Source: Octopus vulgaris (Eukaryota). Taken from it: a stretch of 64,000 nucleotides of DNA. Both the position numbers and the translations under genes were made by a program. The stretch is taken from the NCBI GenBank assembly GCA_951406725.2, contig OX597818.1, forward strand, positions 73,284,001 to 73,348,000, in the 5' to 3' direction. Shown in pieces: positions 33,707 through 63,757 of the stretch (position 1 is the first letter of the stretch; each line of letters starts with the position of its first letter). The notes under the pieces are model-generated. The model did no database searches and was not told the origin of the DNA. It saw only the letters and a list, made by a program, of their open reading frames with translations.

Positions 33707-34789
33707 TTTTGTTAAAATAGAACAGAAATAACAATATGATCAGAACTAGTTAAATGATACACTTTTAAATATGGATTTGTTTCATTGGTCCTTTCAAATA
33801 ACGGTCTTGAGCATGCGATAAACAAATAAACAAAATAAATGAATTCAATATAATTTATAAATTATAAATATCGAGGGGAAATCCTTAAATGGAAGAGCAG
33901 ATTCAAAATACATATTGTCATTAATTATATATGTAATTTAATTCGATTAATACAATTAATACATTAAAAATTTAAATATTTCACAACAGTATATACGCGG
34001 TGCCCCAGCATGGCCACAGCTCATGAGCTGAAACTGGAAAAATCAAAAATCATACTAAACCATCAATATACATATATACATTAAAATACACAGATGGATA
34101 TTCACAGACCACATACATATGCAGACATATATATACAAAACATAAATATACACGCAAATACACATATGCGTATGTATACGTAATGTTGCGCGCATTTAAA
34201 AATCACTTGGTGTATACATATAGACCAGTAGTAAAACGCAGATAGGGGGAAGAAAAAGAAAACGAAAAGGTAATGATCTTATAAAGCAACAGTTAGCTAA
34301 AAAAAGTGAGTAAGAAAAGAGGAGGGGGCGTAAAGTTACAGAACTCTATGCAAGTAACGAATAGGAGGAGAAAAATATTTTTCCTTAACGAAAGAAAAGA
34401 AAAAAGAAGTCTGAATATGTGTACCGAACGTATACAAAACAAAATTACGTACGCATGTGTATATAAAAGTGTATATTAGCAGTAAATACAAACATAAGAA
34501 CAAATATATAAAAATTTATAGACATAAGTACGTAAATACACACTCACAGACACCTTCAAAATTTCTGTCCTCCTGCTTCAAGCAGAAAGAAAGTTTAATA
34601 AAGCGGCAATATGCCTTACTTTTAAAGGCAGAACCAGAATGTTTCGTGATATATTTTAATATAATCTACAATCTAAGCTCAAATCGCACAATGACCAATT
34701 TCGCATTTCGTGGTGAGTTGTAATATATATATAAGAAATTTTAAAAAGAAAATACGCACACTTTACACACCTTTAAAATAATTTTTACT

Positions 34790-34824
34790 ATATCGACCGG
34801 TTTCGCTTTCGCTATTCATGATAT
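34790..34824 (-). ncRNA. Minimal type-I hammerhead, A3-U8 core variant
   Basis: Revcomp ATATC-ATGAATA-GC GAAA GC-GAAA-CCGG-TC-GATAT: 5-bp helix I, GNRA-capped helix II, palindromic ACCGGT helix III, GUC triplet. Confidence 0.75.
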
Positions 34825-35213
34825 TAAGGTTTACTTATTTGAATATGTATTTTCTTAAGAAGAAATTTTGTCCATATTGTGTGTGATGATATTTACGAGT
34901 GAATAAACTTCACAAGTACAAAAACAAGGGGAGGTAATTGGTCATCGTTATTATTGTTATTGTTGTGGGCAAAGGAGATAACAGTTCAGTTTTCGATAAG
35001 GGGAGGGGAATATATGTGTACAGACAAAAAAAAAAAAGGTTTCGAAAAACATGGTGTACATAAATCCCCTCAATAAACAAATTGTTCGAAACCTTTTTTG
35101 TTTGTCTGTACATATATATTCCTCTCCCCCTTAGCGAAAGCTGAACAGTTATCTCCCTTACCCACATGAACAAAATTGCTTATTAAAATACATATTCAAA
35201 TAATTAAACCATA

Positions 35214-35248
35214 ATATCATGAATAGCGAGAGCGAAACCGGTCAATAT
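35214..35248 (+). ncRNA. Minimal type-I hammerhead, A3-U8 core variant (second arm)
   Basis: ATATC-ATGAATA-GC GAGA GC-GAAA-CCGG-TC-AATAT; mismatch at the core-proximal pair of helix I. Confidence 0.7.
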
Positions 35249-35313
35249 ATTAAAAATTATATTAAAAGTATTTAAAGTGTGTATTTTCCTTTTTAATTTC
35301 TTATATATATATG

Positions 35314-35387
<74 letters not shown>

Positions 35388-35392
35388 TATAT

Positions 35393-35810
35393 AGACTTAA
35401 TAAGTGGTTAAAGTAGCCTCATTAACAGACAAAAATATCCAATGAATTACTGTTTCATTGCCTAGTATTTTTGTGAATGCTGATATTTATAAAATATAGG
35501 TCCAAATAAAAAGTTTGGTTTATAAATATTCAAGAGAAAATTCAAAAAATCACGATGTAGCAACTATATTATTAATCGACTGCAAAATGCCAACATATTC
35601 TTTTACAGCTGTTTTGCATAAGGATTAAATTACAATAATTAAACAAAATAATATCCAGTGTGTTGAGATAATTTGAAAACACAACACCCAATAACATTAT
35701 GGTATATCTTTTCTACTGCTTCGATGAAATTTTGCCTTATACAATGATTAATTATTTTACATATATATATACACATACACACGCACACTCATGTATATAT
35801 GTATATTTAA

Positions 35811-37659: not shown

Positions 37660-38340
37660 ATATTGGTTTCAAATTTTGACACAATGCCAGCAATTATGCG
37701 GAAGAGTAAGTCGATTACCTCTACCCAGTGCTCAACTGATACTTATTTTAAGAAGCTCGAAAGGATGAAAGGATAAAAACCGACCTCGGTAGCATTTGCA
37801 CTTAGAACGTAGAGACAGGCAGGATGCCGTGAAGTATTTTTATTTCGTTTTACTCGCTAAACCTTTTGCCAGCTTGGCCCCATAAACCAGCATATTTTAA
37901 TATTAAATAAAGTGTAAGGCATCAAACTGGCGGAAGTACTAGGGGACAGTCAAAATACTCGTATTTCCTCCGACATTACGTTCAAATTCCGCCGGGGTCG
38001 ATTTCGACTTCCGTTCTTTCAGGATCCATACAATATATATTATGTGCACACTGGACTCAATGTAATCCACTTACTTTCATTCCCAAATTACTGACCTTGT
38101 GCCACAGTTTGAGACCAACATTACATGAAGCTTTCTGGTGGCACACTGGCAGATGAGTTTGCATGACTGGAAAAGTCGTAGCGGCTTCTCTTCGGGTAAC
38201 TTATGCTGTGAGTCTGCCGAGGTGAATTTTGCTTTAAACATTTCAGTCAAAAATAAGTAACAGCCAAGTACATTGATCGATGTAATAGACTTGCAGACAC
38301 CCTCCAAATTTCTGTCCTCCAGCTTATAGCAGAAAGAACG
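37660..38340. mobile_element. Cluster of three degraded SINEs (family of 23441): one minus, two plus
   Basis: cgaaaggatgaaagg (minus), tacgttcaaattccgccggggtcga, ctgccgaggtgaattttgcttt. Confidence 0.7.
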
Positions 38341-38552
38341 TTTAATAAAGCGGTAATATGCCTTAATTTTAAAGGCAGAAAGAATCGTGGTATATTGTAA
38401 TATAATCTGCAATCTAAGGTCAACTCCCACATTGACCAATTTCGCATTTTGTTCCTTCAGTCATTGATTAGTAACTCAGACAGACAGACGAACACACACA
38501 AGCACACTTACACAAACACACGTGTGTGCATGTGTTTTTATGTGTATGTACA

Positions 38553-63722: not shown

Positions 63723-63757
63723 ATTTAACGTTTCGAGTGGAGCTCTTCGTCAGAAAC
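63723..63757 (-). ncRNA. Near-intact minimal type-I hammerhead in a (TA)n-anchored element (~63626-63900)
   Basis: Revcomp gttt-CTGACGA-a-gagctccactc-GAAA-cg-TT-aaat: intact core, gag/ctc helix II, palindromic ACGT helix III. Confidence 0.7.

Follow-up and report, generated by a model that had tools for sequence, protein, structure and literature searches.

The window analyzed here (the whole stretch of 64,000 nucleotides of Octopus vulgaris contig OX597818.1) carries two copies of a minimal hammerhead motif, one in each arm of a fold-back that spans positions 34709 to 35312. Nucleotides 3 and 8 of the motif, which are established to pair as C3-G8 in the active hammerhead (PMC3088659, PMC9901934), are A and U in both copies. 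The locus comprises the following features:

34790..34824, minus strand: left motif, an intact A3-U8 minimal hammerhead (from sequence)
35214..35248, plus strand: right motif, a damaged A3-U8 hammerhead (from sequence, family comparison, and cofolding)
34709..35053, minus strand: left arm, the 5′-truncated 3′ end (pLTR) of a Penelope-like element (PLE), without an ORF (79-91% identity to genomic copies of the same TATC-type subfamilies)
35055..35312, plus strand: right arm, an inverted 5′-truncated copy of the left arm’s pLTR (from self-alignment and alignment to family copies)
35301..35395, no strand: (TA)n microsatellite at the 3′ end of the element, the usual flank of the family (from sequence; most family copies shown end in (TA)n)

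The 22-mer TGAATAGCGARAGCGAAACCGG is matched at positions 34797 to 34818 on the minus strand and at positions 35220 to 35241 on the plus strand, with 0 matches in 100 shuffles, which agrees with the preliminary description of this DNA as having the motif in both arms. The left motif consists of helix I (AUAUC/GAUAU), the box AUGAAUA, helix II with its loop (GC-GAAA-GC), the GAAA segment, and the palindrome ACCGGU. Its A3, U8, and C17 are located at positions 34819, 34814, and 34795, respectively, and the cut is predicted, by hammerhead numbering, 3′ of the C at position 34795. In the right motif, the same nucleotides are found at positions 35219, 35224, and 35243, and the cut is predicted 3′ of the C at position 35243. 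The A at position 35244, which is the base after GUC, opposes C2.1 and breaks the first pair of helix I next to the predicted cut of the right motif. An A in place of the pairing base occurs at this pair in only 6 of 153 family copies. When the two halves of helix I are cofolded, they pair in the left motif (−1.3 kcal/mol) and remain unpaired in the right motif, whose loop, GAGA, is private.

The left arm includes the first ~15 bases of an optional tail (34709-34723), as determined by tail comparison, and the right arm has lost about 90 internal bases near position 35165, which correspond to 34875-34963 in the left arm. Around the motif, the two arms are 87% identical (133 of 153 positions). 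No PLE ORF was detected by tblastn anywhere in the 64-kb window. Whichever strand is read through, 34 of the 35 motif bases are paired within the fold-back of the resulting RNA, and a cis dimer of the two window motifs can be ruled out, as they are on opposite strands, point apart, and are absorbed in the fold-back duplex. Because inverted 5′-truncated copies and opposite-strand pairs are already typical of PLEs, we attribute the twin motifs to a single insertion event. The twin arrangement, which contributes nothing to function, is an ordinary inverted PLE insertion with motifs that are unable to pair in cis. Given that the two copies point apart on opposite strands, fall in one duplex, and, in the case of the right copy, lack the first helix I pair, they are probably inert, and the locus is probably a fossil.

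A 165-base segment, repeated at 34542-34711 and 38289-38452 with 87% identity, abuts the truncated tail of the left arm; it has no match among the genomic loci compared. Elsewhere in the window, a canonical C3-G8 minimal hammerhead motif of a different repeat family is present on the minus strand (position 3 at 63753). This motif has an extra A before helix II and is without helix III, and similar motifs occur at loci L303 and L008.

State of the 3-8 pair across the family and its carrier element

The genome (2.8 Gb in 227 contigs) was searched by exact matching, with a reversed control, for a family pattern in which positions 7 and 8, loop II, and the center of the palindrome were left open. 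This search yields 1018 matches in the genome and 0 in the reversed control. The A3-U8 state (AUGANUA) is found in 943 of the 1018 matches, another 34 have A3 without U8, and the remaining 41 have a base other than A at position 3 (G-U in 14, U-U in 12, C-U in 8, U-A in 6, and U-C in 1); C3-G8 and G3-C8 each occur in 0 of the 1018. The same picture emerges from a motif-independent sample. A search that used the family endonuclease as query listed 150 loci, from which the top 30 and 60 of the lower-ranked ones were taken. The motif region is missing from 10 of the 90 loci, and the 80 that keep it include 78 with A3-U8, one with G3-U8, and one with a gap at position 3. The A3-U8 pair is, therefore, the state of the family, as had been proposed, and neither private to this locus nor a departure from a CUGAAGA consensus. 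The literal CUGANGA box combined with this helix II layout has 0 matches in the genome, and a CUGANGA-based search would indeed miss the family, as anticipated. Inside the family, no 3-8 covariation was seen: the copies with G8, C8, A8, C3, or G3, and most of those with U3, each seem to have undergone a single change during decay. The genome search with a 3-8 covariation check that the preliminary description had suggested thus upheld an A3-U8 consensus but revealed no covariation within the family.

At the sequence level, the 3-8 pair is a Watson-Crick pair, A-U in this family and U-A in the sister families found by protein search. Nucleotides U4, G5, A6, A9, G12, A13, and A14 and the NUH site are the majority state in all flank-defined clusters and in the protein-selected loci. 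A three-helix core with an open helix I is present, with helix III existing only as an intermolecular palindrome; pairs G10.1-C11.1 of helix II and A15.1-U16.1 are kept, and helix II has 2 pairs only. No tertiary contact was seen in the A3-U8 motif. Loop II varies among GAAA, GAUA, and GAUU, with most copies having GAUA or GAUU. Its third base is U in 67 of the 90 protein-selected loci, and GAGA occurs in 2 of the 100 matches listed, so the retention of GNRA loops inferred earlier from the two arms does not hold for the family.

Covariance models from Rfam yielded no hammerhead match in the window at E values up to 10, and they missed 8 of 8 control loci. Because canonical C3-G8 motifs of the genome also fall below the gathering score, the Rfam miss is not specific to A3-U8. 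Two sequencing runs of unspecified type (organisms C and F) also contain the family, and among the rows listed they show no other base at position 3 or 8 at an 8% threshold.

In family copies, an ORF encoding a reverse transcriptase (RT) and a GIY-YIG endonuclease ends about 300 bases upstream of the motif on the same strand, and in the tandem copy L012 the motif is located ahead of the ORF start. Since the motif is located both after the end of the ORF and before its start, it lies in the pLTR, which corroborates the earlier assignment of a minimal type I hammerhead motif to a PLE pLTR. A 628-amino-acid frame of the family matches RVT_1 with an E value of 1.1e−6, just under the Pfam cutoff, and GIY-YIG above the cutoff; the family translations contain a CX4CXXC linker (CGRPNCGTC) and the CCHH cysteines. 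Copies have either of two fixed end points, which are separated by about 55 bases, and most of the copies shown terminate in (TA)n. Opposite-strand pairs of copies are common. The family copies thus have the RT followed by a C-terminal GIY-YIG with CCHH, the pLTR hammerhead, the inverted truncated copies, and the optional tail of EN+ Penelope-like elements, and also the CX2-5CxxC linker finger before GIY-YIG that marks the Neptune clade. The domain order, the finger, CCHH, the pLTR, the inverted 5′-truncated copy, and the optional tail are likewise shared by Neptune PLEs (Craig et al. 2021, PMC8557442). We therefore refer to the carrier as a Neptune-like Penelope element, a placement suggested by domain features, of which the linker finger is also shared by Nematis. 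The Anolis Poseidon element PAc (PMC11167929) also has a hammerhead near the ORF start and two 3′ end points that form a tail. However, PAc has C3-G8 and its cleavage has been assayed (PMC11167929), whereas the present family has A3-U8.

None of the A3-U8 ORFs seen is intact, and among the loci listed the longest open frame has 635 amino acids. Individual copies are 7-14% away from the majority sequence of their own subfamily, and the family seems extinct. The ORF located upstream in L001 and L043 was ruled out as the ORF of the A3-U8 family, as it belongs to a nested U3-A8 element (in L001, a copy of the F3 family described below). A non-LTR retrozyme was also ruled out, given that the A3-U8 copies are scattered, are associated with PLE ORFs, and do not form short head-to-tail repeats. 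Tandem units of ~360 bp found in this genome carry C3-G8 or U3-A8. Retrozyme-like tandem units of this length at L088 and L097 (also at L070-L076 and L109) have near-identical flanks, with U3-A8 in the former and C3-G8 in the latter, and represent a direct natural 3-8 covariation pair.

Origin of the A3-U8 pair and conservation of the motif core

Genome-wide counts of exact patterns (reversed control in parentheses) are 3322 (4) for U3-A8, 1111 (8) for A3-U8, and 3 (3) for G3-C8, which is at the background level. C3-G8, counted with a looser pattern, has 373 matches (15 in the reversed control), and U3-A8 by exact pattern outnumbers this looser count about nine to one. The A3-U8 matches listed all resemble this one family. 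The related PLE families F1, F2, and F3/F3b carry U3-A8. Protein search identified two of them, F1 and F2, which are very young Neptune-like families with many intact frames of 753-784 amino acids (784 in F1 and 753 in F2). The motif of F3/F3b differs from the A3-U8 motif mainly at positions 3 and 8, in loop II, and in helix I. Among the F1 and F2 loci (including L160, L161, L321, and L337), the site in F1 is GUA, and in F2 the GAAA segment is followed by an extra A; F1 is also split into an upstream frame of 446 amino acids and the frame of 784 amino acids.

A tree of 41 endonuclease rows includes 30 from the A3-U8 family (5 of them labelled unknown at the tree stage), which group together with support of 83/94 (not starred). 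This group forms a polytomy with F2, F3, and L300, and F1 falls outside at 97/83 when the tree is rooted at the midpoint on two distant rows. Because the nearest families, found by protein search, carry U3-A8, ancestry from U3-A8 is favored, and parsimony suggests that A3-U8 most likely arose by a flip of U3-A8 and not from C3-G8. The preliminary description had presented A3-U8 as standing in place of C3-G8; the likely change is instead from U-A to A-U.

An old divergent subfamily with AGUC/GACU in helix I (loci L306, L308, L309, L300, L177, and L311) has U3-U8 three times, A3-U8 twice, and U3-A8 and A3-C8 once each, its U3 copies being a biased sample drawn from the list of non-A3 matches. 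As a lead only, these sequences point to U3-U8 as a possible intermediate stage in the oldest subfamily. Across 18 representatives, the 3-8 pair is U-A in 7, A-U in 6, C-G in 4, and other in 1 (0 of 500 shuffles), counts that are illustrative only, as most of the rows were found by patterns that fix a paired 3-8.

Selection on the motif was evaluated in 207 motif segments, 162 of which were assigned to five groups defined on motif sites and 45 of which were left out. When the oldest subfamily is compared with the youngest, none of the 20 constrained positions differs, whereas differences are present at 3 of the 5 free positions and in 49 of the 204 columns of the flanks (P = 0.004). The P value is above 0.05 in 7 of the 10 subfamily comparisons and is about 0.10 when the downstream flank alone (5 of 46) serves as the reference, and the sequences of the oldest subfamilies, having come mainly from motif searches, are biased toward an intact core. 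We consider the outcome of this test modest. In a motif-independent reclustering on upstream flanks only, which kept 153 of 200 rows (the right arm of the window is among the dropped rows), the clusters differ only at N7, at bases 3 and 4 of loop II, and in helix I. Pairs 1 to 4 of helix I are formed in 139 to 143 of the 153 copies, with compensatory swaps: pair 3 is A-U in 112 copies and G-C in 28, and pair 5 is A-U in 90 and G-C in 16. Within subfamilies, the core decays at the pace of the flanks, and because the decay after insertion matches that of the flanks, single inserted copies are neutral. Between master lineages, the core remained unchanged through successive subfamilies, unlike N7, loop II, and helix I.

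Proposed function and its alternatives

We propose, with a probability of roughly 0.68, that the locus consists of two defunct 3′ fragments, inverted relative to each other, of a Neptune-like PLE and that the family-fixed A3-U8 motif was likely a slow self-cleaving ribozyme, assisted by a dimer partner or by protein, in the active master elements. In the hammerhead, the 2′-OH of nucleotide 8 is the general acid and G12 is the general base (in part, PMC6155905). Under our proposal, A3 would pair with U8 in place of C3-G8 and would hold nucleotide 8 for this role. Two motifs would pair through ACCGGU, the duplex of which has a computed energy of −8.3 kcal/mol. Because helix III of a monomer would close a 2-base loop, cleavage would need a dimer, perhaps with the help of a PLE protein. 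The cut after GUC would trim the RNA of the element out of a longer transcript. For other PLE hammerheads, both dimeric cleavage (PMC4209133; reviewed in PMC6765202) and protein-assisted cleavage (PMC11167929) have been described. Two contigs from a single run, the RNA type of which is a guess, terminate at position 34798, which falls 3 bases before the predicted cut, and nothing past that position is covered; this is one study, represented by contigs only, and we do not count it as evidence.

The closest known system is that of the min-HHRs of metazoan PLEs, which include the U3-A8 hammerhead of Schistosoma mansoni Cercyon (Cervera and De la Pena 2014, PMC4209133). The present family shares with them the type I topology, the location in the pLTR, the short helix I, the palindromic helix III, and covariation at 3-8, as well as the prevalence of solitary truncated copies and the opposite-strand pairs 100-700 bp apart. 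However, helix II has 2 pairs here and 4-8 pairs in the min-HHRs, the unpaired base between positions 9 and 10.1 is absent here, and the 56 representatives aligned in that study comprise 53 with CUGA, 3 with UUGA, and 0 with AUGA, whereas the present family is A-U. Judging from its title and from a review (PMC6765202), the work of Lunse, Weinberg and Breaker (2017) on PLE hammerheads with a very short palindromic stem III and dimeric cleavage concerns similar motifs. Natural compensatory U3-A8 hammerheads were reported by Perreault et al. (2011, PMC3088659), and A3-U8 is not among the variants in the section of that article on 3-8. We found no report of a natural A3-U8 hammerhead in the literature searched, where spellings with a colon, slash, or dot are unsearchable and where the alignments of Lunse 2017 may contain examples. 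Natural U3-A8 is already published, and A3-U8, as a sequence variant, was not found in print. The A3-U8 family does not reveal a new ribozyme class.

Covarying 3-8 pairs are noted as active in vitro (PMC3088659). When all pairwise mutants of a single type III hammerhead were scanned, the G-C swap alone rescued 3-8, with the other double mutants at this pair showing low activity (PMC9901934). In the octopus genome, this in vitro-competent swap, G3-C8, is at the background level. Context evidently matters, because U3-A8 occurs naturally and is the pair of the young families here, and the result of the scan would rule it out as well. Przybilski and Hammann reportedly found in 2007 that any Watson-Crick 3-8 pair is cleavage-competent in two type III ribozymes.

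The strongest alternative, although we regard it as unlikely, is that the A3-U8 motif keeps the fold and cuts negligibly, acting as a structural handle for RNA dimerization via the palindrome or for binding of the PLE protein. This would be in line with the failure of A-U to rescue 3-8 in the one scan (PMC9901934), with the low in vitro activity of PLE hammerheads (PMC4209133), and with observations on one PLE, PAc, in which hammerhead mutants had no effect on insertion in vitro and no RNA-seq ends were found at the cut site (PMC11167929). The possible U3-U8 stage in the oldest subfamily would also imply a weak catalytic constraint. A structural handle, however, does not readily account for the retention across subfamilies of U4, G5, A6, A9, G12 to A14, and the NUH site together with a Watson-Crick 3-8 pair, which has a known role in the active fold.

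It is improbable that ribozyme function was lost in one master element and that the motif was then copied passively in a declining family, with the A3-U8 pairing a coincidence. The apparent extinction of the family and the thin statistical margin in most subfamily comparisons would fit such a loss, and a second change restores the pair with a chance of about one in three. Yet, at least four or five subfamilies in succession inherited the motif; over this course the flanks diverged by 24% and helix I underwent two compensatory swaps, with 0 changes in the core. Finally, we give very little credence to the idea that A3 was favored because A3-U4-G5 is an AUG start codon and that U8 followed to keep the pair: the A3 change does create AUG, and the ORF of one Poseidon element begins inside its hammerhead (PMC11167929), but the frame closes after 16-20 codons in 8 of 8 copies tested and its residues vary between subfamilies.

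A bolder form of the preferred reading, that of a self-cleaving ribozyme in the master elements, is that the family is the first among natural hammerheads to show a purine-pyrimidine 3-8 pair, that it is active, and that the path from U3-A8 (sister families) through a U3-U8 master (oldest subfamily) to A3-U8, fixed in about a thousand copies, is preserved in the genome. The intervening valley might have been crossable with a PLE protein or a dimer partner propping up the fold. We offer this sequence of events as a speculation that is tentative at best.

If the A3-U8 motif is active, nature would have a third way of forming the base pair in the hammerhead core, this one in purine-pyrimidine order, and hammerhead descriptors should permit any Watson-Crick 3-8 pair. 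A search for CUGANGA in this genome would catch a small minority of such motifs, given that C3-G8, even with its looser pattern, is far less abundant than U3-A8 and A3-U8. The U-A and A-U relatives, built on a near-identical tiny scaffold, form a series suited for testing the need for cutting by PLE hammerheads and for examining how a compensatory change crosses a mismatch.
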